From NCBI GenBank assembly GCA_002719095.1, contig PBGO01000024.1, positions 1 to 62,528 of the forward strand: 62,528 nt of DNA, given 5' to 3'. The stretch is from Fidelibacterota bacterium. Its GTDB lineage: Bacteria; Fidelibacterota; Marinisomatia; SCGC-AAA003-L08; D37C17. Shown one piece after another: positions 15,870-49,983 of this stretch. Below the pieces are notes generated by a model that saw only the letters and a program-made list of their open reading frames with translations, made no database searches and had not been told where the DNA came from. Position 1 is the stretch's first letter, and each line of letters opens with the position of its first letter. Position numbers and translations under genes: made by a program.

Positions 15870-15911
15870 AACTTTCTTTAATATAAATAAAAAAGATAAT
15901 AAATTAAACAG

Positions 15912-15988
15912 ATGTTAGGGGTGCTTAAATGCTGAGATTATACCCTATTAATTAACCTGAACTAGATAATGCTAGCGGAGGAAAACAT
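15912..15988 (+). promoter_or_regulatory. TPP (thiamine pyrophosphate) riboswitch, THI-box
   Basis: AGGGGTGCttaaatGCTGAGAttatACCCtattaattAACCTGAactaGATAATGCtAGCGGAGG matches the conserved THI-box blocks GGGGUGC, CUGAGA, ACCC and AACCUGAUCUGGAUAAUGCCAGCG. A putative P1 helix pairs ATGTT (15912-16) with AACAT (15984-88). It overlaps the first two bases of the start codon and follows the GGAGG Shine-Dalgarno sequence. Confidence 0.85.
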
Positions 15989-18401
15989 GAAAAATAATCC
16001 AATTTTTTTAATCCTATTGAGTTCTTTAGCTTTTACACAAACTTTTCAACTAGTTGATGAAAGTAACTACCCTATTACATATGCTCAAATATATAATACA
16101 AATCTTGGAATAGGATCAATTTCAGATGCTGATGGATATTTTACCATATCCTACGAAAAGTGCATCGAACTAAATATTGACTATATTGGATTTCAAAAAA
16201 AAATAATCAATACTTGTAGAGCATCAGATATTATAAGATTAATTAAATCACCACTCCCATCAAGAGAAATATCTGTTATCGGCGATTTAGGTAACTCAAA
16301 GCTCAAAAACCTCATATCAGATGTTCAATTATTTTCCAAAAATGATATTGTAAATTCAAATAAAGAAGATTTATCAGATGTCTTAAAATCATCAACAAAC
16401 CTTGCGTATTCTTCATTACATTCAAGAGTAAAATACTTTCAAATTAGAGGTATTGGCGAAATAGAACAGTTTGTCGGTCAAGCAGGTCCAAATTATTATG
16501 TAGGGACTATGATAGATGAAGTGAACCTAAGTGGTATAGGTATGCCAATTTTCTTACATGATGTTGAGCAAGTTGAAATATTTAAAGGCCCTCAATCTTT
16601 TACTGTTGGACAAAACGCTATGGCAGGATTAATAAGAGTTAATACCATTGATCCAAAAGCATTTTTTGAAAGTAAATTCAGTATAGATGTTGGTAATTAT
16701 GGTAAAAATAACTTGACTTTTATGCTCAATCAGCCATTAAATGCTAATACTGCTTTACGAGTTTCAGTTGCTAAAAATAAAGACGATGGGTTCATCTTTA
16801 ATAACTATTATGGTAAGTACTTGAATGGAAAGAATGAATTAATTTCTAATTTTAAAGTTAAATACAATAAAGCTCTTAGTTCAGGAAATTTATTCTCTTT
16901 CTCAGCAATGAGCATGCATTCAGACCTAGATAATGGTAATGATAAATGGAGTCATTCTAATTTTAATGAACTTGATGTAACAAATTTTGAAACCGATACA
17001 GATTTCATCGGGCGTGATACTTTTTTGGGTAAATCAAACATTATAAAAGGAACATTTGTTGATAATAAAAATTTCCAAAAGATTAATCTTATTTTTACTA
17101 AATCAAAATATGACTTAAACTACGATTATGATGGGGATTGGTCAAATGAAAGTCATTGGAATGATTTGTATACAAATCCATTGAGCGAAAGTTATAGTGA
17201 AAATGCTTATTCATATTGGGCATTCCCAACATTCGAATCAAGATCAAGGCATGATAACAGCATGGAATTTAAATTGTCTAAATCATTTAAAAAGCATAAC
17301 CTCATTTTTGGTATTTTCAAAAAAGAAATTACTGAACGTGATATTGGGACTGGATTTATCTTTGATTTAGGTGTTGGTTACGTTGATAATTACAAAACGA
17401 GATATTCAACTGATTATAATTCCTTTTACATACAACACACTTTATCATTAGATGATGAAAAATCACTAACACTCAATTTTAGAAATGATGATTATAATAA
17501 TGAGTTTGATTACAACTATACCTACTATGATAATAATTCATATTTAACAAGTGAATACAAAACCGATGGTCAGGTTTATAAATATTCAAATTCTATACAA
17601 AGTTTTAGAATCGGTACAAATATAGATAATTTTTATTTTTCGGTCAGCAAAGGTCATAAAGCTGGAGGAATGAATTTAAGTCCATCTTCTCTAGTCACTG
17701 CTAATAATGATACAGTAACAGTTCTTAATAATATTGATCGAAAATATGATCCTGAGACAAATATAAATTATGATATTGGTTATTCATTAAATTTTAATAA
17801 TCTAAATCTAAATCTTACTTTATTTTACATGGATAGAAAAAATGTTCAGGTAAAACTTCAAGATCAAATTGGAGATTGTCCAACATGTTACTTATTCATA
17901 ACAAAAAATATAACAGAAGCTATTAATACTGGTATTGATTTAGAATCAAGCTACAGACTTAATTCTAATTTTTTAATGTTTTTAAACTTAGGCTTGTTAG
18001 AAACTGAAAGAGCAAATTATTCGCATACAAACTATGCTGGAACAACGAATTATTATCTTAAAAGAGAGCTCTCTAATGCTCCAAAATGGAGTTTAGCAAC
18101 TGGTTTTGAATACAGTTTAAATGATTTATTTTTTTTGAGATATGATATATCTTCAAAAGATTCATACTATTACTACGATGATTTAAATGATAAGTCTTCA
18201 GTTACAACAACTCACAATATCAATTCTAGGTACATTATAGATGAAAATATTAATCTGACAATCTGGGTTAAAAATCTAACAAATAAAGTTTATCCTGCTC
18301 ATATATATAATTTTTCTCATGGTCCAGGACTTGAAGCACAGCAATGGAAATCTCCAACATTACCCATGACCTACGGTTTAAAAATAGATTATAAATTTTG
18401 A
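15987..18401 (+). CDS. TonB-dependent outer-membrane receptor (with N-terminal carboxypeptidase-regulatory-like domain)
   Basis: The signal peptide is MKNNPIFLILLSSLAFTQ. A plug-like region and about 22 amphipathic strands follow, and the C-terminus is TYGLKIDYKF (terminal Phe). I place the start at ATG 15987, 5 nt after GGAGG. The track ATG at 15969 lies inside the riboswitch. Confidence 0.8.
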   Translation: MKNNPIFLILLSSLAFTQTFQLVDESNYPITYAQIYNTNLGIGSISDADGYFTISYEKCIELNIDYIGFQKKIINTCRASDIIRLIKSPLPSREISVIGDLGNSKLKNLISDVQLFSKNDIVNSNKEDLSDVLKSSTNLAYSSLHSRVKYFQIRGIGEIEQFVGQAGPNYYVGTMIDEVNLSGIGMPIFLHDVEQVEIFKGPQSFTVGQNAMAGLIRVNTIDPKAFFESKFSIDVGNYGKNNLTFMLNQPLNANTALRVSVAKNKDDGFIFNNYYGKYLNGKNELISNFKVKYNKALSSGNLFSFSAMSMHSDLDNGNDKWSHSNFNELDVTNFETDTDFIGRDTFLGKSNIIKGTFVDNKNFQKINLIFTKSKYDLNYDYDGDWSNESHWNDLYTNPLSESYSENAYSYWAFPTFESRSRHDNSMEFKLSKSFKKHNLIFGIFKKEITERDIGTGFIFDLGVGYVDNYKTRYSTDYNSFYIQHTLSLDDEKSLTLNFRNDDYNNEFDYNYTYYDNNSYLTSEYKTDGQVYKYSNSIQSFRIGTNIDNFYFSVSKGHKAGGMNLSPSSLVTANNDTVTVLNNIDRKYDPETNINYDIGYSLNFNNLNLNLTLFYMDRKNVQVKLQDQIGDCPTCYLFITKNITEAINTGIDLESSYRLNSNFLMFLNLGLLETERANYSHTNYAGTTNYYLKRELSNAPKWSLATGFEYSLNDLFFLRYDISSKDSYYYYDDLNDKSSVTTTHNINSRYIIDENINLTIWVKNLTNKVYPAHIYNFSHGPGLEAQQWKSPTLPMTYGLKIDYKF

Positions 18402-18402
18402 T

Positions 18403-19722
18403 TTGTTTTACATAATAGCAATTTACTTTTTGATTATTATTTTTGTTGGACTATCAACTAGGTACAGCAAAAATAATATAGATTTTATCTATGCAGGAAG
18501 AAAACTAACCGCTCTTCCACTAATGCTAACTTTAGTTACAACATGGTATGGCGCTATATCAAGTGTTGGTCAAGAAATATCATATAATGGAATTTCTACA
18601 TGGCTCTATTTTAGCTTAACCTACTATATAGCTGCATTCATTTATTCTGAATTCATATCAGATCGAATCATTGATAAAAATATTAGTTCCATAACAATTG
18701 GTATACTTAATCATATGGGAAAGAAAGCAGCGATAGTTTCTATTCCAGTTGTTCTTCTTTACACATCACCGGCGCCATACCTTATCATGTTGGCAAACAT
18801 TATTAATAATGTGATTTTTGAATCTAATCATTATTCACTTTCTTTATTTTTGGGATTATTACTAAGTGTAATTTATTGTTTTAAAGGTGGATTTAAATCT
18901 ATTGTTAATACTGATAAGTATCAATTTTTATTTATGTTTGCAGGATTTGTAACACTGACTGTATATATAATATTTTTCTATGATTATGGTTTCAAAAGAT
19001 TAGCAGAAACCTATTACTCCAATACAGAACTTTTTAACATACCTGGCAAACAAGGCTATATGTATATACTTGCTTGGGGCTTTATAGCAATTTTAACGTT
19101 TATTGATCCAAATTTTCATCAGCGTACGTTTTCATCAAAAAATAAAGTAGAAATAAAAAAAGCTATTCGTATGTCGATTTTATGTTGGTTCATTTTCGAT
19201 ATGATAATTCTATTTTGTGGTCTTTATACTATAGGAACAAACTCAACTACTCCATATATTTCACTTGCAATAGACATCTATAGCGGCTATCCATTGTTGT
19301 ATGGTTTATTTATAGTTTCAATATTATCTATCATAATGTCAACAATCGATAGTTTAACATTTGTATCAGCATTGATAATTGGCAAAGATCTTAAATCTAT
19401 TTTTAATAAGAAGTTTAATCAAAAAGATATTAAATGGGGTATAGTATTTACAATCCTAATATCACTAATCATAATTCAATTTTTTGAAAATAATAGAATT
19501 ATTGAAATATGGTTTGTATTTGGAAGTTATATGGTTAGCGCGTTGCTTGTACCTTTTTTTTGTATAATTTCTGGAATAAAAGTTAAACATCCATTATTTC
19601 TAATTCTAGCTCCACTTTTAGTAACGTTATATTTTGATATTATAAAGATTGATTGGATTATTTCAATGTATCCAGGATTAGTTTTGAGTTTTATTTTGAT
19701 GATATTTTTGAAAAAAAATTAA
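18403..19722 (+). CDS. Sodium:solute symporter (SSS) family transporter, possibly ThiV-like (thiamine/HMP precursor uptake)
   Basis: About 12 TM segments. The N-terminal block YAGRKLTALPLMLTLVTTWYGAISSVGQ is typical of SSS carriers. The TTG start lies 1 nt after the receptor stop, so the gene is co-transcribed behind the TPP riboswitch. Confidence 0.65.
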   Translation: MFYIIAIYFLIIIFVGLSTRYSKNNIDFIYAGRKLTALPLMLTLVTTWYGAISSVGQEISYNGISTWLYFSLTYYIAAFIYSEFISDRIIDKNISSITIGILNHMGKKAAIVSIPVVLLYTSPAPYLIMLANIINNVIFESNHYSLSLFLGLLLSVIYCFKGGFKSIVNTDKYQFLFMFAGFVTLTVYIIFFYDYGFKRLAETYYSNTELFNIPGKQGYMYILAWGFIAILTFIDPNFHQRTFSSKNKVEIKKAIRMSILCWFIFDMIILFCGLYTIGTNSTTPYISLAIDIYSGYPLLYGLFIVSILSIIMSTIDSLTFVSALIIGKDLKSIFNKKFNQKDIKWGIVFTILISLIIIQFFENNRIIEIWFVFGSYMVSALLVPFFCIISGIKVKHPLFLILAPLLVTLYFDIIKIDWIISMYPGLVLSFILMIFLKKN

Positions 19723-33508: not shown

Positions 33509-34381
33509 TTATATTTTATCACTAATATTATTTTTATTTCTTTTAAATGTAAAATAACCTATCAATACTAAAATTACTACTATCATAGCACCGAAAGTTC
33601 CATAATAATAATCTTGAGTACTATATTTTATCAAATCATCAAACCTACCTATCAACAAAGAGATTCTTCCCATAACAGTAAACCCAAAAGAAGCACCGAA
33701 CGAAATCATGAGAAAATAAATACCTACTTTACTCACCTTACCTAAAGCCCCTTCATGCTTTTTCGAGAAGAAAAAATATACCAATGCACTAATAGTTCCA
33801 ACAATTAAAATTGTACTATTTAAAAAAGCAGAAAAACTTTCTAAAGACATGTCATTCTGAACACCTATAACTTGAGCTAATATATCTGAATTCAAATAAC
33901 TGAAAGCTCTCAAACCTGCAAATACGCCTACAATGTAAGCAATTGAATATCTTGCTAACCATGACAGGGAAGGTATTAACCTAAATAACATAAGCATTCC
34001 AAGTATGAGGGGGATTATGTAGCTAAAATATATTTTAGGTTCTGAAGGAGAAACATCTATTCCACCTGGAGATATCAAAGAAGGCTCTAAATAGCCAAAT
34101 AAAGTAGTGACATTAAAACCTAAATTATAAATTCCATACCATATATCAACTATAATGCTTGAATCACTTGAATCTGGCAACTTTGGCCATAGTTTGCCGA
34201 TTAAACTCGGTCTCAAAAATTGCCAATAAGCAAGAACTACTCCATAACCCGCCGAAACGCCAGCAAATAAATGTTCTGCAGCCTTATATAGTGGATTATC
34301 ATTGAATAAAAAACTAAGTATTGATAAAGTCAAAAAAGCTGATATCCATGCTGTGAGTATATCTGAACCAATCATTGTCAT
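33509..34381 (-). CDS. Unknown polytopic membrane protein (cluster member 7)
   Basis: 290 aa with about 7 hydrophobic segments. It overlaps the upstream gene by 4 nt. I recognise no family motif. Confidence 0.55.
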
Positions 34382-35217
34382 TTACTACCGTCCCTGGCAT
34401 TAAGGAATATGTACGTTATATTTCCTATAATTATTAGGATTACAATTAATATGTGTGCAAAGGATTGTGGTGTCATATTTTTTGAAGCAGGACCATAAAC
34501 TCCATTAAGACTTTCATAACTCGCAGCTCCTGATAACCCAGCTAATATTCCTTGAAGCTGACCACTATTTACATATGGTAAAAGCTCAGTTACTTGAACT
34601 GCTGTTACACCAGTTGTAACTTTAATTTTTTTCCCATCACACTGTGTTGCACTCTGGTCTCCAGCAAATTGAACCCATTCTTTCGATCCAGGACTTCCGG
34701 CTGAAAAAGATACAATGAAGTCATAATCACATAAATTTTTAACTTTATTTTTTGCTTCAGGAAAAATCTTTGGAATATCTGAAAGCATACCTTTGATAAC
34801 TGCTTCTCCACCAGGTGCGTATCCAAGCTCAAAAATATTCTCATTTAAATTTATACCCAAGTCTTGCAATTCTGAATCGGACTTGATTTTATTAATTGTT
34901 TGAGTCATCATACCCATACCTGTTGGAAAAAGAGCTGATAAATGTACTTCGTTTCCTGATAACAAAACTTGTTTCATTATAGCAAATGACATTGGTCCCA
35001 ATTCAGGTTCGGTACTTGGTCCATAATCAAATGAAAGGAGTATTTTTTTATCTTTTTCATTAAATGTTTTTTCAATAGCTTTGTGAGCTGTTGCTGCATA
35101 TTCATCTGGTTCAATTGGTAATTGAATTTCTAAAAGCATAGGTGAAATGACTGCAACTGCTAAAAGCAAGTAGATTATTCGACTATCAATATTATTTAAA
35201 ATTTTTAATATATTCAT
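34378..35217 (-). CDS. Unknown bitopic protein: N-terminal TM, roughly 220-aa soluble domain, C-terminal TM (cluster member 6)
   Basis: The TM segments are IIYLLLAVAVISPML and HILIVILIIIGNITYIFL. The middle domain is hydrophilic. Confidence 0.55.
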   Translation of the reverse strand: MNILKILNNIDSRIIYLLLAVAVISPMLLEIQLPIEPDEYAATAHKAIEKTFNEKDKKILLSFDYGPSTEPELGPMSFAIMKQVLLSGNEVHLSALFPTGMGMMTQTINKIKSDSELQDLGINLNENIFELGYAPGGEAVIKGMLSDIPKIFPEAKNKVKNLCDYDFIVSFSAGSPGSKEWVQFAGDQSATQCDGKKIKVTTGVTAVQVTELLPYVNSGQLQGILAGLSGAASYESLNGVYGPASKNMTPQSFAHILIVILIIIGNITYIFLNARDGSK

Positions 35218-36021
35218 TTAATCGCCTAAAAATGATTTATCTTTTCCAAAAATTATTCTCAATGATGTTGCTACTATACCAAGGGCAACACCAATCATAA
35301 TAGCTTTCTTTCCCGCTACTGTTGGATAAGCAATTATCCACAAGGATATAGACTTTGAGCTCAATTCAGGGCTCCAAAAAAACATAGAAAAGCCTGAAAT
35401 AATTATTGTAATAATAAAAGATTTAATCAAAATATCTTTTGAAGTAAAAATGGGAGATAAGAACGCAAAAATTAGTGAAATTATAATGAAAACAAACATC
35501 CACGAGGGAATATATGATCCTACTGGAACTGCTCCAATCATGACTAATACACCAGCTGTTAGCAAAAGAGATGCTTCAAAGTTTCTAATCCTAAAAGCCC
35601 TGTAAGAAGCAGATGCAACAAAAAAAGCTAATAATGCAAACATTGTAGCGTCTAATGGTTTAAATAATGAATCAAACATCCAAGTGAAAAGTGAATTTGG
35701 ATCCTGTATGTGCTCTCCCCAGTTCTTTTGATTACCATTACCTCTGTACAAAAATCCAGAGAAAATCATTAGACCAAACCCTACAAGAAGTATCATACTG
35801 TATCCATAATCTGATTTTTTATAAACTAATTTGGTAAAATGCATTTTCAATAAATTAAAAGCACCTAAAAATATTGCAAATGCGGCTATAATATCGAACC
35901 ATAATAGTGAATCTTGTTCAACCCAATCTCCAACTGATTCAATTTTTATAAAATGTGCTATTAGTGTCAGTAACCCTATACTAACCATTATAATTACGGG
36001 AAGTTGACGTTTAAAAAACAT
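35218..36021 (-). CDS. Unknown polytopic membrane protein (cluster member 5)
   Basis: 267 aa with about 7-8 hydrophobic segments. It shares a loose ..YRAF/LRAF.. segment with member 7, so the two may be distant paralogues (weak). Confidence 0.55.
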   Translation of the reverse strand: MFFKRQLPVIIMVSIGLLTLIAHFIKIESVGDWVEQDSLLWFDIIAAFAIFLGAFNLLKMHFTKLVYKKSDYGYSMILLVGFGLMIFSGFLYRGNGNQKNWGEHIQDPNSLFTWMFDSLFKPLDATMFALLAFFVASASYRAFRIRNFEASLLLTAGVLVMIGAVPVGSYIPSWMFVFIIISLIFAFLSPIFTSKDILIKSFIITIIISGFSMFFWSPELSSKSISLWIIAYPTVAGKKAIMIGVALGIVATSLRIIFGKDKSFLGD

Positions 36022-36868
36022 ATATGCCCCAATAAGATAAAACTTTAAGTATCGAAAGTAATATTATAGAGATAATTATAATAAATTTGACTAAATCTTG
36101 TCCACGTACACTCCCCAGTAAGTCTTTCCTACCTGAAAGAATTGCACTGGCTGTTAAAAATTCTTCACCGATTAGCGTGTAGTCGCAGGCAGTTACAAAA
36201 AAAGGTATCTGGGATGAGGAACCTGTACCTGCTATTTGAATTGCACCAATTCTGTTTCCAGTTTCAGCTAATAATAGAGATTCTGCATAAAACTTACCTT
36301 GATAGATACATGCGGCGGGTTTCTCTCTTATCATTATTCCATTTATTCCAGCAGCATATGCAAATTGATCCTCTGCTAAATAATGCACCATGTCATTGTG
36401 ATAAAGATCTGGCCTACCCACTTGTAAATATGATTCCTTACAGATTTCTCGCGCTGCTTCCATCACGATTGATTTTGAAACGGGTACATTAAGATCTGTT
36501 TCATATTCGGCAGTAATTTTTGCTACATGCCCAAGAATATTAATACCCGCAATTGTTTCAACTTCATTCAAATCAAGTATTCCAGGAACAAACAATACTG
36601 GCTTTCCCATTTCTGTAGCTCTGCCAACAGCTTCTTCCATAGCTTTGATTCCGGCAATTTCCCTAATGAAAATCTCATTTCCAGACTCGGCCCAAAAGAC
36701 AGAAGTCATAAGTATATTTGAAACAACTATTAACAAAAAAAACATCGGCATATTATCTGATTTAAAAATCATATTTATCCAGTATATATCCAATATAAAA
36801 AACAAAGATATCAAAATACTTAAGGCAAAAGTTATCTGAACTTTTGAATTTCTAATCAGTTCAGTCAT
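36011..36868 (-). CDS. Unknown membrane protein: two N-terminal TMs, roughly 190-aa soluble domain, C-terminal TM (cluster member 4)
   Basis: The soluble core is REIAGIKAMEEAVGRATEMGKPVLFVPGILD...IQIAGTGSSSQIPFFVTACDYTLIGEEF. The start is set at MTELIRN, an 8-nt overlap with member 3. Confidence 0.55.
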   Translation of the reverse strand: MTELIRNSKVQITFALSILISLFFILDIYWINMIFKSDNMPMFFLLIVVSNILMTSVFWAESGNEIFIREIAGIKAMEEAVGRATEMGKPVLFVPGILDLNEVETIAGINILGHVAKITAEYETDLNVPVSKSIVMEAAREICKESYLQVGRPDLYHNDMVHYLAEDQFAYAAGINGIMIREKPAACIYQGKFYAESLLLAETGNRIGAIQIAGTGSSSQIPFFVTACDYTLIGEEFLTASAILSGRKDLLGSVRGQDLVKFIIIISIILLSILKVLSYWGIYVF

Positions 36869-37118
36869 TTTCAGAGCTCTCAATTTTAGTAATGAAATTT
36901 TCAACGTTATTTCGATCGGATAATAATTTTGATATCTGATAATATTTTTTCGAATTTAGAAAAATAGTAGCAAGTGGGCCCGCAACAATCATTGCCTGAC
37001 TAAAAGTAAAAGAAAGATATTTAAACATTTCAAGAAAAAAAACAGCTGGGACAGACATTCCTTTATCTTTAATTGTTTTTGCATAAGAATTCATAATATC
37101 AATATTATCGTTTTTCAT
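36861..37118 (-). CDS. Unknown small 2-TM protein (cluster member 3)
   Basis: 85 aa with hydrophobic VPAVFFLEMFKYLSFTFSQAMIVAGPLATIFL. Its start abuts the member 2 stop. Confidence 0.5.
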   Translation of the reverse strand: MKNDNIDIMNSYAKTIKDKGMSVPAVFFLEMFKYLSFTFSQAMIVAGPLATIFLNSKKYYQISKLLSDRNNVENFITKIESSEND

Positions 37119-44567: not shown

Positions 44568-44589
44568 AATGCAATAACTGATTCATTTG

Positions 44590-44676
44590 TACCGAGGGCC
44601 GGAATCGAACCGGCACGAACATGTAATGTTCGAGGGATTTTAAGTCCCTTGTGTCTACCAGTTTCACCACCTCGGC
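44590..44676 (-). tRNA. tRNA-Leu (anticodon TAA)
   Basis: Reverse complement: GCCGAGG TG GTGAAACTGGTAGACAC AAGGGA-CTTAAAA-TCCCT, long variable arm, GCCGG-TTCGATT-CCGGC CCTCGGT-A. 87 nt. Confidence 0.9.
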
Positions 44677-44684
44677 AGATCGCG

Positions 44685-44756
44685 AGGCGTCGACCAGATT
44701 CGAACTGGTGAATGATGGTTTTGCAAACCACTGCCTTACCACTTGGCTACGACGCC
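44685..44756 (-). tRNA. tRNA-Cys (anticodon GCA)
   Basis: Reverse complement: GGCGTCG TAGCCAAGTGGTAAGGC AGTGGT-TTGCAAA-ACCAT .. CCAGTTCGAATCTGG CGACGCC-T. The discriminator is U, as expected for Cys. Confidence 0.9.
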
Positions 44757-44761
44757 ACTCG

Positions 44762-44834
44762 AGCGAAAGAAGGGATTCGAACCCTCGACCCTCACGTTGG
44801 CAACGTGATGCTCTACCAGCTGAGCTACTTTCGC
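44762..44834 (-). tRNA. tRNA-Gly (anticodon GCC)
   Basis: Reverse complement: GCGAAAG TAGCTCAGCTGGTAGAGC A TCACG-TTGCCAA-CGTGA GGGTC GAGGG-TTCGAAT-CCCTT CTTTCGC-T. 73 nt. Confidence 0.9.
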
Positions 44835-44896: not shown

Positions 44897-45985
44897 TTAA
44901 TGGTTATGCCATCTGTGAGGGTCCTCCATTGGACCTCCCAAATTTCTTGTCTTAATCTTGCCTTCATCAACTATTTTCAAAACATAAGGATTATCTTGAA
45001 TCGATTTATCCAACGTAATCTGTTTGACTTGTATTGTATTCTTAGCTTGATTAATTATGTTATTATACTTTTGAATGTTATCATTATAACTATTAATTAA
45101 GGATACATCAGCATCAGAAGACATGTTTTGAATTCTCTTTTTTTCAAGATTAATTAATTTATTGTAATAAGGCAAATCAACTATTGGATCAACCTTGTTA
45201 GTACTTTTAAAATCAAATTGATAAAGTACCTTACCTCTATCTCCTGTCGAATATATTGGAAAAACACTATTTCCTCCATCTCTAGATTTCCTCCTAGTAT
45301 TAGATCGCACTACAAAGTCAACTTCTAAATCAGATTTACTAATTTTTTTATAATCTTGATCTGATGAACTGAATAACAAAATTATAAAATCAGTTTTAGA
45401 CTTTAAATCAATAATGCTATTTTTAATAGATTCAAAAGGGTCTAACACGTATATATCATCAGATACAAATGTTGATGAGGCGCCAATGATACCAATTTTA
45501 AAGTTTTCTTTTTCAACTATTTTGTAGGGTTTAAAAATTAGATTAGACTTGGAATCAGCAATATTGCAAGATATGAAATCAAAATTTGATTCTTGTTGTA
45601 ATTTTTTAGCGAACTCTAAACCAGCTGAAAAATCTTTAGGACCTGGAGAGAAAGCATCGCATGATATATAGTTAAATGATTTGACAATAGTCATTGCATT
45701 TTCTTTAGCAACATCCATACTCACTCCTGGATCAATTTTTTCTAACTTAAAGAAAAGATTTCCAGCATCGAGAACTAGTGTTTTGTAGCCAGATTCCATT
45801 GAGTTCTTTACAACAGTACATTTGCGAGCAAGACCGCCCGCAGGTTTCTTTTTTCAGCCACATGGCTCAGTTTCGCCTTTTACGTCTCCAGAAATATAAA
45901 ATCTAATATGAGTTATATCTCCCTCACCGTTGGAAAATGAGAAACTAGAAATGACAAAAAGACAAATTAAAAAATAATTAAACAT
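44897..45985 (-). CDS. Candidate secreted selenoprotein (Cys-Gly-Sec motif) with a 5'-nucleotidase/metallophosphoesterase-like body; one in-frame TGA at 45856-45854
   Basis: ATG 45985 follows AAGGAG by 5 nt and overlaps the upstream gene's stop by 8 nt. Translation gives MFNYFLICLFVISSFSFSNGEGDITHIRFYISGDVKGETEPCG-TGA-KKKPAGGLARKCTVVKNS-MESGYKTLVLDAGNLFF, in frame with the 300-aa track ORF 44897-45799. GGLAR and LVLDAGN recall UshA-type blocks. Confidence 0.55.
45823..45842 (-). promoter_or_regulatory. SECIS-like hairpin downstream of the in-frame TGA
   Basis: The minus strand reads UGA-AAAAAGAAACC-UGCGGGC-GGUCUU-GCUCGCA. The stem has 7 bp (5 GC, 1 AU, 1 GU) and the loop has 6 nt. The loop GGUC begins exactly 18 nt after the UGA. 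Confidence 0.5.
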
Positions 45986-46445
45986 TACTTCTCCTTGCAA
46001 AAACATATCTAAATTTAATGAGCAAACAGGCAAAAATTAAAACAAAATCAATTAAGATTGCATCAGTAATTGTTGTATCCAATGAGCTACAACCGCAAGA
46101 TATGTCTAGGCCCCGAAAAAATGCCAGTGAAAGCATTATTATAAAAAATACTAATAATAAAATTATCAAATTATTAGCTTCATCCATTAGAAATCCACTT
46201 ACTAAACAAAAGCCTAATAGAAATTCTAACCAAGGCAGTATTAAAGCTAGAGATGTATCAAGGAATGAGAGTCCAAAATATGATGAAAATTGATAAGCTT
46301 CAATCATTCTTGCAAATGAATATGGATCGATTATTTTATCAACAGAAGCATATATAAAATATCCTCCTATGATAAATCGCAAATATGCTATAAGTGTCAG
46401 TCTATCAAATTCAAAGCTATCTTTCAAAATCTTAATTAATTGCAT
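45978..46445 (-). CDS. MauE/DoxX-family membrane protein
   Basis: LIAYLRFIIGGYFIYASVDKIIDPYSFA and LPWLEFLLGFCLVSG form the typical MauE/DoxX pattern, with 4 TMs and a CGC near the C-terminus. The start is set at MQLIKILK, a 14-nt overlap with the rhodanese stop. Confidence 0.65.
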   Translation of the reverse strand: MQLIKILKDSFEFDRLTLIAYLRFIIGGYFIYASVDKIIDPYSFARMIEAYQFSSYFGLSFLDTSLALILPWLEFLLGFCLVSGFLMDEANNLIILLLVFFIIMLSLAFFRGLDISCGCSSLDTTITDAILIDFVLIFACLLIKFRYVFARRSNV

Positions 46446-47052
46446 TATTCCTCCAATCTTCCCAACCACCTTTATATATCGATACATTTTGATAATCAAA
46501 ATAATCAAACATATAATTTGCAAGATTTTCACTTTTATCACAATTCTTGGAGCCGCAATAAATAACAAAAACACCATCTCTGGGCATGTCATTTAAAATC
46601 TTTACACTTTCAAACTCGCTTTCATACATCAATTCAATCTCTTTTATTTTATCTAAATCATCTTTGTCATCAAAATAACCCTCACTCTCAATAGTTTCGA
46701 TATTACTTAGAGGTATATTTATTGCATTCTGTATCATCATCAATCTGTCATCTATTTTTTCATCATAAATTTCTGATGCTGATCTTGCATCGATGATATT
46801 AACACAATCTAAATTAATTAGAGCTTCAAGTTCTATGAAATTTATATTTTTTTTAATTGTTTTTACCATTTCACAATCCTTGAAATCTACATTAGCAATA
46901 TCAAGCTCAATCTTGAAATTATCTAAGTCAGGCAGATTTTTAAATAATAAAAAGTCATCAGATTTATGAAATGGATAAGATAACAATCCCAGCAAAACTG
47001 ATAGTGCCACTATCAATATGTATTTATTTAGTTTTTCTTTTAATGTTTGCAT
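46432..47052 (-). CDS. Rhodanese-domain protein with N-terminal signal/anchor
   Basis: The C-terminal rhodanese block is VNIIDARSASEIY...VFVIYCGSKNCDKSENLANYM...YKGGWEDW. The ATG at 47052 (MQTLKEKLNKYILIVALSVLLGLL) is preferred over the track's TTG at 47121. Confidence 0.65.
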   Translation of the reverse strand: MQTLKEKLNKYILIVALSVLLGLLSYPFHKSDDFLLFKNLPDLDNFKIELDIANVDFKDCEMVKTIKKNINFIELEALINLDCVNIIDARSASEIYDEKIDDRLMMIQNAINIPLSNIETIESEGYFDDKDDLDKIKEIELMYESEFESVKILNDMPRDGVFVIYCGSKNCDKSENLANYMFDYFDYQNVSIYKGGWEDWRNNAIN

Positions 47053-47154: not shown

Positions 47155-47230
47155 GGGGATATAGCTCAGTTGGGAGAGCGCGTGAATGGCATTCACGAGG
47201 TCAGCGGTTCGATCCCGCTTATCTCCACCA
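47155..47230 (+). tRNA. tRNA-Ala (anticodon GGC)
   Basis: GGGGATA TAGCTCAGTTGGGAGAGC G CGTGA-ATGGCAT-TCACG AGGTC AGCGG-TTCGATC-CCGCT TATCTCC-A-CCA. The G3:U70 identity pair is present and CCA is encoded. Confidence 0.9.
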
Positions 47231-47256
47231 TAATTTTTACTATAAGGAGATTAATT

Positions 47257-49983
47257 TTGGGAACACTAGGATCACTAAGGAATAATTCGAAGCCAATAAT
47301 TTGGTTTGTAATAATTGCATTTGTAGTTGGTTTAGCTGGAGCTGGATTATTTAGCTACATTTCTTCACAAAAACTTAACTTGTTTGGGATGTCGAGCCCA
47401 AACATTTATTCTATGACGGTCAATGGTATTCCTATTAACCATTCTGATAGAACCATTGGCGGAAATCAGAATGCTTTAGATTATATTGGTACTTTCTATG
47501 GCCCTAAATCATCTTTTGGAATGCCAATAGGAACTTCCAAGATATCTAACAATTTGGATATCGCTTCAAGTGACTCTGAGTATCATGATATAGATATCTA
47601 TAATAGGCACATGCAAACACAAAATGAACTAATATCTCGGGTTGTAACAGAACAAATCTATGATAATGCATTTCAAAATAATGTTTCAGATATGGATATT
47701 TTAATATTTTTAAAATCTGAAATTGATAATTCAAATTTCAGAACAAATGTGGGAGTAAGGTCGCCAATCATAAAAATTAACCAATATTTAAATAGTACTT
47801 ATTTTATTGGATTTGAAGAAAATTTTGAGGATGAGCCAGACGGTTTATGGAATACAAACGAAAGATTTGTTGATTTGAATAACAACAGAACCTGGGATAT
47901 TGGTGAAGAATTTACTGACTCAAGTGGAAATGGTGTTTGGGATATGGACGAGTATTTCGAAGATAAAGGCAATGGTGCTTGGGATGACGCTGACTTATTT
48001 GAGGATAAAGGAAATGGTTTGTGGGATATTGGTGAGGATCTTATTGACAAAAATGATAATAATATTTGGGATCCGGGTGAAGAATTTACTGATTTACCAG
48101 ATGGTGTCTGGACAGAAGGTGAGAAATTAACTCTTGATAGAAATAACAATGGAAAATGGGATGATGCCGAAACCTTTACTGATACTAACAACAATGGCTT
48201 GTGGGATGATGGAGAAAGTTTTGTTGATAAAGGTGATGGTATTTGGGATAATGGTCTTGAAGGATGGTTAAATCATTGTATTAAAGAGAAAAAGATTGAC
48301 TACAACCTAATCTTTAATAAGAATATTGCAAGCATTGTTAGAAATTATATTAATACAGTCGCTGTATATCATATAAAAAATAAAAAATTTGATTTAGCTT
48401 TTGAGGAAATTAATTATGAATCTCAATCTGATAAAAAAAATTCTTACCTCCAAAAAAAATCAAATGCAGTAATTAGCTACATATCTTATGACTTAAATAA
48501 AATCAATGTCTCTGAAGTAAGCTCAAGGATAGATGAAAATGCATTGAAAGAAAAAATTCCAGAATATGAAAATTTGCGTATTGGTTATTTTTCAACCAGC
48601 TTTTTATTAGCTGCACTAACACTTTTTATTATTTTTTCATACAAAAACAGACTAAAAAAATCGCTACTGTCATTGGGTTTATTTTTTACTTTTCTTCTTC
48701 TTTTGATTTTTATATTCAAATTAAGAAGTGATTTAAATCAAGGTAATGAAGAGTATGTAAATATCTCATATATACATTTATCACTTGATAATATTGAAGG
48801 AGAAAAACTGTCAGACTTAGGAAATGGAATTTGGGATCCAGGCGAAAAATTTACTGATACTAACGAAAATGGAATTTGGGATGAAGAGCCTCTTGAGCTG
48901 GATTTGAATGGAAATGGTCTTTTTGATAACGGTGACAAATATCAAGATTTAAATGAAAATGGTCAATATGACAGAGAGGATTTTATCGATCTAGGTAATG
49001 GGGTATGGAATTCTGGAGAAGATTTTGTGGATACAAATGAAAATGGTATGTGGGACAGTAAGGAAACATTAGCTGGAATTATGCTTGACGATTTGCTAAA
49101 CGAAATCGAAGAAACAAGTTTTAGTTCAGCTTTTGATAATTCTGATCTAACCAAAGAACAAAATATTTTTCTTTCAAAGAATTTCAATCAGGATAATATT
49201 TCAAATCTCGATATTGATCTTGAACAAAAATACGAGTTTGTAGATAATTCAATTCAACTTGTGACTGACAAAGAAGCAAAGATATTTGGATCAAGTTTAT
49301 TTGACGTGCTTAATGAAGCATTTGATGTGAAAGAAGGGAATACATTTATTATAAACCAAAATAATTCTTCAGATGGTTCTATATCAGGCTATATAATAGG
49401 TTTTGTTTCATCTAGAGGAAATCTTTACCAACAGACTGAGCTTGACAAATTAAAGTCCAAAGAAAGAAAGGTTGCAATCAAATCAATATTAATGGAAAAG
49501 AACATATTAGAAAAAGAGCTGTTTAAGCAAGAAATGAATAATATTATTTCAGGCGATTTAACGAGTGAAGATATTAAACAAAATTATCAAGAACTTGATG
49601 TTGTGTTTGAACACGAAGTATTACCCCCAGAAGATTCTACTCTTAGAGGATATGCGTCAGTCATGGGTGTTGGAGAGACATCTGACTTAATAATTGGAGA
49701 TGATAAGGCATTCGTAATATATCTATCTCAAAAATCTACAAACGATGGAGCTTTTGGAATGGATGATTTCACATATTCTCAACCAGGATATGAAAAATTT
49801 TCAAATTTCTTTGCAGATAATATTGATAACGCAGATATTCTTGATTGGAAAGATGAATCTTATTACAGGCCTATGACGAATGATCCAAATCAAAATAATG
49901 TAATAAATGATATTTATTTTAATCTAAATAATTTTAAATCAACTGTTCAATCGCTTTATATGGGTGATTTTGATATCAAATAA
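47257..49983 (+). CDS. PpiD/SurA-N-like periplasmic chaperone homologue, greatly expanded by repeat arrays and an internal TM hairpin
   Basis: The TTG start at 47257 lies 7 nt after AAGGAG. The track start at 47170 lies inside tRNA-Ala. LGSLRNNSKPIIWFVIIAFVVGLAGAG followed by TVNGIPINHSD resembles the PpiD N-terminus. Confidence 0.6.
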   Translation: MGTLGSLRNNSKPIIWFVIIAFVVGLAGAGLFSYISSQKLNLFGMSSPNIYSMTVNGIPINHSDRTIGGNQNALDYIGTFYGPKSSFGMPIGTSKISNNLDIASSDSEYHDIDIYNRHMQTQNELISRVVTEQIYDNAFQNNVSDMDILIFLKSEIDNSNFRTNVGVRSPIIKINQYLNSTYFIGFEENFEDEPDGLWNTNERFVDLNNNRTWDIGEEFTDSSGNGVWDMDEYFEDKGNGAWDDADLFEDKGNGLWDIGEDLIDKNDNNIWDPGEEFTDLPDGVWTEGEKLTLDRNNNGKWDDAETFTDTNNNGLWDDGESFVDKGDGIWDNGLEGWLNHCIKEKKIDYNLIFNKNIASIVRNYINTVAVYHIKNKKFDLAFEEINYESQSDKKNSYLQKKSNAVISYISYDLNKINVSEVSSRIDENALKEKIPEYENLRIGYFSTSFLLAALTLFIIFSYKNRLKKSLLSLGLFFTFLLLLIFIFKLRSDLNQGNEEYVNISYIHLSLDNIEGEKLSDLGNGIWDPGEKFTDTNENGIWDEEPLELDLNGNGLFDNGDKYQDLNENGQYDREDFIDLGNGVWNSGEDFVDTNENGMWDSKETLAGIMLDDLLNEIEETSFSSAFDNSDLTKEQNIFLSKNFNQDNISNLDIDLEQKYEFVDNSIQLVTDKEAKIFGSSLFDVLNEAFDVKEGNTFIINQNNSSDGSISGYIIGFVSSRGNLYQQTELDKLKSKERKVAIKSILMEKNILEKELFKQEMNNIISGDLTSEDIKQNYQELDVVFEHEVLPPEDSTLRGYASVMGVGETSDLIIGDDKAFVIYLSQKSTNDGAFGMDDFTYSQPGYEKFSNFFADNIDNADILDWKDESYYRPMTNDPNQNNVINDIYFNLNNFKSTVQSLYMGDFDIK
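47821..48270 (+). repeat. About ten tandem DxNxNGxWDxGExFxD coding repeats (array 1)
   Basis: The array reads EPDGLWNTNERFVD LNNNRTWDIGEEFTD SSGNGVWDMDEYFED KGNGAWDDADLFED KGNGLWDIGEDLID KNDNNIWDPGEEFTD LPDGVWTEGEKLTLD RNNNGKWDDAETFTD TNNNGLWDDGESFVD KGDGIWDNG. Confidence 0.85.
48815..49065 (+). repeat. About six tandem repeats of the same motif (array 2)
   Basis: The array reads LGNGIWDPGEKFTD TNENGIWDEEPLELD LNGNGLFDNGDKYQD LNENGQYDREDFID LGNGVWNSGEDFVD TNENGMWDSKE. Confidence 0.85.

Follow-up and report, generated by a model that had tools for sequence, protein, structure and literature searches.

A Marinimicrobia UshA-like protein with a predicted Cys-Gly-selenocysteine motif and a conserved hairpin behind its in-frame TGA codon

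The 'COG0737, UshA-like' selenoprotein family, which carries a Cys-x-selenocysteine (CxU) motif, was reported from the ocean with 76 selenocysteine (Sec) sequences in 20 Global Ocean Sampling (GOS) samples (Zhang & Gladyshev 2008, PMC2398784) and has been relisted in the reviews PMC9312934 and PMC13188914. The 2008 study gives no taxonomic assignment, no analysis of selenocysteine insertion sequence (SECIS) elements, no operon context and no function for this family. SAR406 single-cell genomes with SelD have been listed (Peng et al. 2016), and our literature search found Marinimicrobia/SAR406 tied to Sec solely as 'orphan SelD'. Here we analyzed a gene on the reverse strand of a stretch of 62,528 nucleotides (nt) from a Fidelibacterota bacterium (contig PBGO01000024.1 of assembly GCA_002719095.1; the whole stretch is called the window below), the reading frame of which is crossed by a TGA codon. 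We consider it highly probable that this is one gene for a secreted UshA-like selenoprotein of roughly 41 kDa, with SelB-dependent Sec insertion and a periplasmic redox role.

The '#COG0737_UshA' block in the supplement of the 2008 study (PMC2398784) contains the same sequences, with Sec written as U. Both clades that we distinguish are represented there, clade A with GGLARK behind the motif, which includes the window protein, and clade B with GGLSRR/K. A clade A read, beginning MKKNILIY and running on through GETDPCGUKKKPMGGLARKSTII, equals the database protein P0049 apart from U/W, and P0049 shares 39% full-length identity with the window protein; clade-B reads are present as well (...HGQLDPCGUKKNPMGGLSRRYVKI...). 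The window protein shares with the listed reads both homology and the CxU motif (PCGU-KKKPxGGLARK). Judged by its sequence, the window gene is the Marinimicrobia form of the known COG0737 UshA-like selenoprotein family. Since the supplement holds the same sequences, the selenoprotein was already published in 2008, and nothing is overturned here; our additions are modest, namely the assignment to Marinimicrobia/Fidelibacterota, a covariation-backed SECIS, a split into haem-bearing and haem-less forms, a three-gene module and a pattern of mis-annotation.

A reading frame that continues through TGA

The frame from ATG 45985 to TAA 44897 contains a single internal stop, the TGA at 45856-45854. Its translation reads MFNYFLICLFVISSFSFS...ISGDVKGETEPCG-TGA-KKKPAGGLARKCTVVKNS-M(45799)ESGY..., with the TGA in the context ETEPCG-TGA-KKKPAGGLARK. 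A first-pass annotation of the same DNA had proposed a candidate Cys-Gly-Sec selenoprotein here, and the features on which it relied could all be read again. The mechanical list of open reading frames (ORFs) starts this gene at Met 45799 and leaves 178 nt unexplained, the interval from 45800 to 45977 being otherwise unassigned. A strong AAGGAG Shine-Dalgarno (SD) sequence lies 5 nt ahead of ATG 45985 (45996-45991), and this ATG overlaps by 8 nt the upstream MauE/DoxX gene, which ends at 45978. The N-terminus is a predicted signal peptide, with a hydrophobic MFNYFLICLFVISSFSFS segment and homologues that carry a signal peptide or a lipobox, and the frame is that of the 300-amino-acid (aa) ORF, with the one TGA as its only interruption.

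According to the ORF list, and to the JGI and NCBI gene callers in the case of the homologues, the TGA would be a genuine stop that closes a 43-codon ORF, and the 300-aa ORF would encode a separate cytoplasmic protein beginning at Met 45799. We find this very improbable, as the 18 codons from the TGA to Met 45799 (KKKPxGGLARK) encode the most conserved stretch of the family, the piece upstream of the TGA is in frame and conserved in 83 loci, and the Cys-containing homologues are continuous proteins. Met 45799 itself has no SD-like motif in front of it, its position is not conserved among homologues, and homologues do not start there; the first-pass annotation had stated that homologues starting at the equivalent residue would speak against its proposal. 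As far as can be told from sequence, 44897-45985 (-) is one gene with the in-frame TGA internal to it.

We then compared the TGA column across 83 loci, 80 of them from a scan of GTDB species genomes and 3 metagenomic. TGA occupied the Sec column in 83/83 loci, at identities of 26-96% to the window protein, and the preceding PCG was invariant save for one ECG. All named loci were from Marinimicrobia/Neomarinimicrobiota/Fidelibacterota, with 26-45% identity in the GTDB scan; the closest relative was a 96% identical Tara contig, while GTDB species representatives were at most 45% identical. The read-through ORFs of these loci were 349-425 aa long, except one truncated at 267 aa, and had a signal peptide or lipobox at the N-terminus. 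That the gene is a pseudogene, or that the TGA is a mistake of sequencing or assembly or a nonsense polymorphism among strains, has nothing in its favour beyond the stop codon itself; it is excluded by the same TGA recurring across the whole phylum in 83 independent assemblies with intact frames on both sides, and we give this explanation practically no credence. The first-pass annotation had named such an error or polymorphism as a way in which its proposal could fail.

Protein databases present this position differently. Among the best 120 close homologues from a protein search, the full-length ones all read 'PCGW', and the rest begin with M/LGGLARK just past the column. The W in these database proteins is TGA in the underlying DNA and evidently arose when gene callers applied code 4 to short AT-rich contigs. 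The mis-calling is systematic: the gene is either split into a 41-43-aa stub and a truncated protein or given a code-4 Trp at the Sec position (P0001-P0120; locus L003, 256-258). A profile search against 1.8 billion representatives recovered distant relatives, 20-30% identical, with Cys at the column as EPCG[C] (P0137, P0150, P0183, P0185, P0217, P0227, P0234, P0261 and others), and the Cys codon of three of them was confirmed in the DNA. The alignment suggested by the first-pass annotation, which expected TGA or the Cys of PCGC at this column, thus gave TGA in every one of the loci and Cys in the distant homologues, and the column therefore shows the classical Sec/Cys pair. Sec was present in every orthologue seen and no Cys version occurred among them, which implies that these bacteria, members of an abundant ocean phylum, constantly require selenium.

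It might also be supposed that TGA is a sense codon here, read as Trp or Gly under genetic code 4 or 25 with no Sec involved, given the W at this column in many database homologues and a G+C content of only 30%. However, that W is merely TGA read by code 4, and the distant homologues carry Cys, neither Trp nor Gly; a dedicated conserved hairpin would moreover be needless. The first-pass annotation had described TGA as an ordinary stop elsewhere in the window, and it indeed terminates 10 of the 41 window ORFs of at least 200 codons, among them that of the TonB-dependent receptor, while Trp is encoded by TGG 114 times in the long ORFs. In many homologues TGA also closes the selenoprotein gene itself. 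A scan of the window for frames bounded by TAA/TAG with an internal TGA yielded no other credible in-frame TGA. The stops at TGA, the use of TGG, the lack of a second in-frame TGA in the window and the TGA that ends homologous genes therefore exclude sense reassignment, and we see very little chance for it.

The remaining TGA-containing frames in the window were rejected as selenoprotein genes, each being antisense to a real gene, overlapping a tRNA or lying upstream of a complete Pfam match.

The absence of the Sec machinery from the DNA at hand counts against the Sec reading. Pfam searches on 33 ORFs of the 62.5-kb window found no sel genes, and neither tRNA-Sec nor selA or selB was seen in the window or in the flanks of 50 related loci, so that for the genome studied here Sec decoding is an inference. 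A tblastn search with an approximate E. coli SelD query gave no match, either in the window or in the loci retrieved for comparison. At the level of the lineage we used as query a Sec-containing SelD read from the GOS supplement. All NCBI-named SelD matches were 'SelD [Candidatus (Neo)marinimicrobia/ota bacterium]', and of the best 120 matches 42 had W at the Sec column, 78 started past the column and 0 had Cys, so that Marinimicrobia SelD suffers from the same annotation artefacts (P0268-P0387; locus L088, 7989-7991). The selD DNA of the metagenome-assembled genome (MAG) GCA_030749285.1 reads ...LSHGSG-TGA-ACKIGP..., and downstream of this TGA lies a hairpin whose loop holds G22 G23 U24. With TGA-containing selD in its MAGs, the phylum therefore has SelD and a second UGA-Sec gene. 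No selA or selB was found beside selD in the MAG loci L088-L090.

We also observed that Marinimicrobia selD (L088, 7989-8987; L089 and L090, 10001-10948) is the immediate upstream neighbour of an Rrf2 regulator and a suf iron-sulfur assembly operon.

These results strongly support the in-frame TGA as a real selenocysteine codon and the Cys-Gly-Sec reading of the gene, the case being carried by the conserved TGA, the Sec/Cys pair, the covarying hairpin described below and the published CxU family.

The hairpin behind the TGA codon

The first-pass annotation had pointed to an apical GGUCUU loop on a 7-base-pair (bp) stem 18 nt after the TGA, and the hairpin was found at that place. Its stem, UGCGGGC/GCUCGCA, starts 11 nt past the UGA and carries the loop GGUCUU; in the minimum free energy fold an extra G22-U27 pair extends it to 8 bp with a 4-nt loop, at -11.7 kcal/mol (positions are counted from the U of the UGA). 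GGCGGUCU, at nucleotides +19..+26, was invariant in all aligned sequences. The two Gly codons in the hairpin were frozen, GGC in 78/78 and GGT in 78/78, whereas in the same genes another invariant Gly, taken as control, was encoded by GGA in 34, GGT in 24, GGG in 10 and GGC in 8, and the Gly right before the TGA used all four codons. GGC accounts for just 12% of the Gly codons in the window. Frozen codons in the hairpin against a free control Gly therefore show that the RNA itself is under constraint.

The stem covaried in both clades. In clade A, pair 16-33 was CG in 28 sequences, UA in 19, AU in 2 and GC in 1, with 0 mispairs, and pair 18-31 was GC in 44 and UA in 5. The 3' arm of clade B is shifted by one nucleotide, giving a loop GGUCU of 5 nt vs the 6-nt loop of clade A, with the position of GGUCU fixed; here pair 18-30 was GC in 12, AU in 6, CG in 2 and UG in 1. 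For each clade the observed covariation score was reached by 0/500 shuffles, and sliding the register lowered the share of paired cells from about 94-95% to at most 57% in both.

Other results count against a SECIS if they are taken singly. The pattern TGA-N18-GGTCT occurs 1 time in the window vs 1.3 expected by chance, and the fold z-score of the hairpin, about -1.8, is not significant alone. A SECIS family was absent from the Rfam matches, both in the whole window at gathering thresholds and at 45760-45900 in E-value mode; the Rfam scans of the window returned only tRNAs and a thiamine pyrophosphate (TPP) riboswitch. As the motif count and z-score of the single sequence are unremarkable, the significance of the hairpin comes entirely from comparative data, and as Rfam gave no match, it was judged on the covariation data and its likeness to fdhF.

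Criteria of the bSECISearch type ask for a stem-loop just 3' of the UGA with an apical G/U at a spacing compatible with SelB. The hairpin has a stem of 7-8 bp with GGUCU(U) 18 nt past the UGA. The E. coli fdhF sequence used for comparison (UGACACGGCCCAUCGGUUGCAGGUCUGCACC...) is found at 100% identity under the name fdhF among the E. coli matches listed, and at an identity of at least 99% in 5413 records. The first-pass annotation had cited a GGUC loop 18 nt past the UGA of fdhF, which agrees with the GGUCU that this sequence has at +22..+26. The covariation and the frozen synonymous sites support the view that the hairpin would act as a SECIS. Following the mechanism established in bacteria, SelB loaded with Sec-tRNA(Sec) would bind the hairpin when the ribosome arrives at the UGA, and selenocysteine would be inserted, giving a product that would read ...EPCGUKKKPAGGLARK....

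A haem-less form with an altered metallophosphatase domain

Pfam returned zero matches on the read-through protein. Its top NCBIfam match, by a wide margin, was NF041198 ('UshA_like_PCGU, UshA-like (seleno)protein', E=1.6e-53), at 182.1 bits against a cut-off of 275 and covering profile positions 2-274 of 519. The P-C-G-U/C motif that this family has after motif I is present (EPCG-TGA), and the C-terminal region that belongs to its full-length definition is missing. Four other Marinimicrobia members scored 194-240 bits. Four proteins that pass the cut-off (P0217, P0227, P0221 and P0233; 334-567 bits) are 445-542 aa long with four CxxCH motifs each; in three of these four the profile match extends to position 518 of 519, and P0217 also matches a cytochrome c-554 model and Pfam family. 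The CxxCH motif occurred in 0/120 of the best family members, and the haem-less short forms, with Sec or Cys alike, all stayed under the cut-off. The sub-cut-off score and the absence of CxxCH therefore place the window gene in a haem-less sister form outside the curated NF041198 definition, and lacking the cytochrome domain, the Marinimicrobia form is missed by the curated model. Matches to NF049981 (UshA_like_Sel_2, CxxU; 29.5 bits vs a cut-off of 140) and to the SoxB thiosulfohydrolase model TIGR04486 (33.8 bits vs 550) remained far below threshold.

A C-terminal tetrahaem cytochrome c is thus carried by these four proteins and was seen in about 20 further NF041198 representatives (see also locus L087, 1080-2708), a feature that the family name does not convey. 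Two giant relatives of about 1200 aa, P0181 and P0267, combine two UshA-like domains with four haems.

The structure was examined on an AlphaFold (AF2) model of P0001, which is 96% identical to the window protein and has Trp in place of Sec (predicted local distance difference test (pLDDT) 87, predicted template modelling score 0.84). Foldseek matched it to E. coli UshA, CD73, YfkN and related 5'-nucleotidases at E values of about 1e-17 to 3e-18 and template modelling scores of 0.6-0.66, and PDB profile matches spanned the N-terminal metallophosphatase domain only, ending near residue 230. The model thus shows the fold of the N-terminal metallophosphatase domain of 5'-nucleotidases. The C-terminal substrate-binding domain of these enzymes is missing, with helices and the His-rich tail in its stead. 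In an alignment to 3ivd the metal-ligand motifs of the window protein were degenerate, with DVK for DxH, GN for GD and GPKDF for GNHEF; among relatives, motif I is NVH in most, and the equivalent of GNHEF is GPKDF or GSKDF. The invariant residues are P41 C42 G43 U44 and G50 G51 L52 A53 R54 K55, and the alignment puts the C-G-U triplet in a flexible loop straight after motif I, in the former active site.

These data bear on whether the selenoprotein might still be a metal-dependent hydrolase, either a phosphoesterase or a SoxB-like thiosulfohydrolase, with Cys/Sec coordinating metal or serving as a regulatory switch and not forming a catalytic redox pair. That role would suit the fold and the best structural matches, which are 5'-nucleotidases, but the C-terminal nucleotide-binding domain is absent; most members keep the His of motif I and the Asp of motif II, but 3/4 of the examined motif I-III ligands are replaced in the window protein, and the catalytic His of GNHE is Lys throughout clade A. 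Weak SoxB matches (1e-8 to 1e-20) and a His-rich C-terminal tail suggestive of metal handling can likewise be cited for it, whereas it is PCGU and GGLARK, and not the metal ligands, that are invariant, and the tetrahaem cytochrome fusion in relatives points to electron transfer. On balance we regard a hydrolase as unlikely, and a C-x-U pair acting as a redox-active centre, as the first-pass annotation had suggested, as plausible.

Some observations weigh against the redox role. The CGU loop has a pLDDT of <50 and was modelled with Trp for Sec. Since the metal ligands vary by clade, with NVH and GD retained in most members and GHYE in clade B, some members may still bind metal, and in clades with more of the ligands a hydrolase role is possible. 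The published lists of the COG0737 UshA-like selenoprotein assign it no function.

Linked genes, proposed role and comparison with known systems

The features of the locus are collected in Table 1. The rhodanese and MauE genes overlap by 14 nt, followed by the 8-nt overlap of MauE with the selenoprotein gene. Of the 79 loci tested, 61 had the rhodanese and MauE/DoxX genes next to the selenoprotein gene in a conserved linkage, in the order rhodanese-MauE-selenoprotein in 45 clade-A loci and selenoprotein-rhodanese-MauE in 16 clade-B loci (L052-L080). That the genes stay together although their order has changed speaks for a common function, and it gives a testable handle on a family that has been functionally blank since 2008; our literature search found no mention of MauE, DoxX and rhodanese together.

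Table 1 Features of the selenoprotein locus in the window
Feature	Position	Strand	Remarks
UshA-like selenoprotein, read-through coding sequence	44897..45985	-	362 codons + TAA; predicted Sec = codon 44
Shine-Dalgarno AAGGAG	45991..45996	-	5-nt spacer to ATG 45985-45983
Predicted N-terminal signal peptide (MFNYFLICLFVISSFSFS)	45932..45985	-	Hydrophobicity; signal peptide/lipobox of homologues; lone helix 2-18 in model
Pro-Cys-Gly-Sec codons CCA TGT GGC TGA	45854..45865	-	Putative Sec codon 45856-45854
SECIS-like hairpin	45823..45842	-	Stem +15..+21 / +28..+34 from U of UGA; loop GGUCUU 45835-45830
300-aa ORF of the mechanical ORF list	44897..45799	-	Truncated C-terminal part of the real gene
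His-rich C-terminal tail DPHRWHNH	44900..44923	-	HxGHxH ends many family members
MauE/DoxX-family membrane protein, 155 aa, CGC motif (ISCGCSS)	45978..46445	-	Pfam MauE 1.1e-17; likely start ATG 46445
Membrane-anchored rhodanese, 206 aa, active-site region IYCGSKNC	46432..47052	-	Pfam Rhodanese 5.3e-12
tRNA-Gly(gcc), tRNA-Cys(gca), tRNA-Leu(taa)	44589..44834	-	Directly downstream of selenoprotein gene

The module is flanked by a divergent tRNA-Ala(ggc) at 47155-47230 (+) and by the tRNA-Gly/Cys/Leu cluster, and this framing by tRNAs recurs in dozens of Marinimicrobia genomes (L001, L004-L050), down to about 35% protein identity. The wider neighbourhood in the window is housekeeping (GroEL, IspG, PheRS, ThrRS and PGK). 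It was also observed that the Cys-Gly-Cys of the MauE/DoxX protein (GLDISCGCSS) mirrors the Cys-Gly-Sec of its downstream partner.

Function was considered with these partners in view. Most likely, the protein serves in the periplasm as a redox enzyme of sulfur or thiol chemistry that works through a selenenylsulfide. The Cys42/Sec44 pair would cycle in the periplasm between the selenenylsulfide and the thiol/selenol. A sulfur or thiol substrate would probably be passed on by the co-transcribed membrane-anchored rhodanese, and redox equivalents could travel via the co-transcribed MauE/DoxX membrane protein with its own CGC motif; in the longer NF041198 relatives, electron transfer would presumably fall to the fused C-terminal tetrahaem cytochrome c. 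As a tentative extension, which we hold possible but rather doubtful, the haem-less form of roughly 360-420 aa might be a distinct Sec-only subfamily and, with the rhodanese and MauE/DoxX, an undescribed selenium-dependent periplasmic sulfur/thiol redox module, in which the metal site was lost, a Cys-Gly-Sec centre was gained and a membrane partner replaced the tetrahaem cytochrome.

Some further features of the window were noted in passing. A 937-aa ORF at 47170-49983 (+) has no Pfam match and contains Asp/Gly/Trp-rich repeats of the NGxWDxGExFxD type that look like calcium-binding repeats; since the TTG start given for it falls within the tRNA-Ala, the real start must be further downstream, and in locus L001 the corresponding position holds a SurA_N-like gene. 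The TPP riboswitch at 15907-16000 (+) scores 58 bits, above the gathering threshold, and lies ahead of genes for a TonB-dependent receptor and a sodium:solute symporter at 15969-19722 (+), an operon that is likely to serve the uptake of thiamine or a thiamine precursor. Three consecutive ORFs of 290, 279 and 267 aa at 33509-36904 (-), downstream of a DUF6754 protein, have no Pfam match and may be the 'cluster' named in the first-pass annotation.

Three described systems serve for comparison. Like the E. coli fdhF SECIS, the window hairpin lies within the coding sequence, just past the UGA, with GGUCU at +22..+26, and it puts G23/U24 at the same distance as the G23/U24 that SelB contacts in fdhF. 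In contrast to fdhF, it has a simple stem of 6-8 bp with no lower helix, and it does not have the bulged U, which speaks against the likeness. With UshA/5'-nucleotidase/CD73 and SoxB the window protein shares the N-terminal fold and a GGxARxAT-type helix after motif I; it differs from them in its degenerate dimetal ligands, the absence of the C-terminal domain and the CGU insertion in the active-site loop. It resembles the GOS COG0737 UshA-like family in its CxU motif, its marine origin and its predicted signal peptide, and within that family it forms a diverged subclade.

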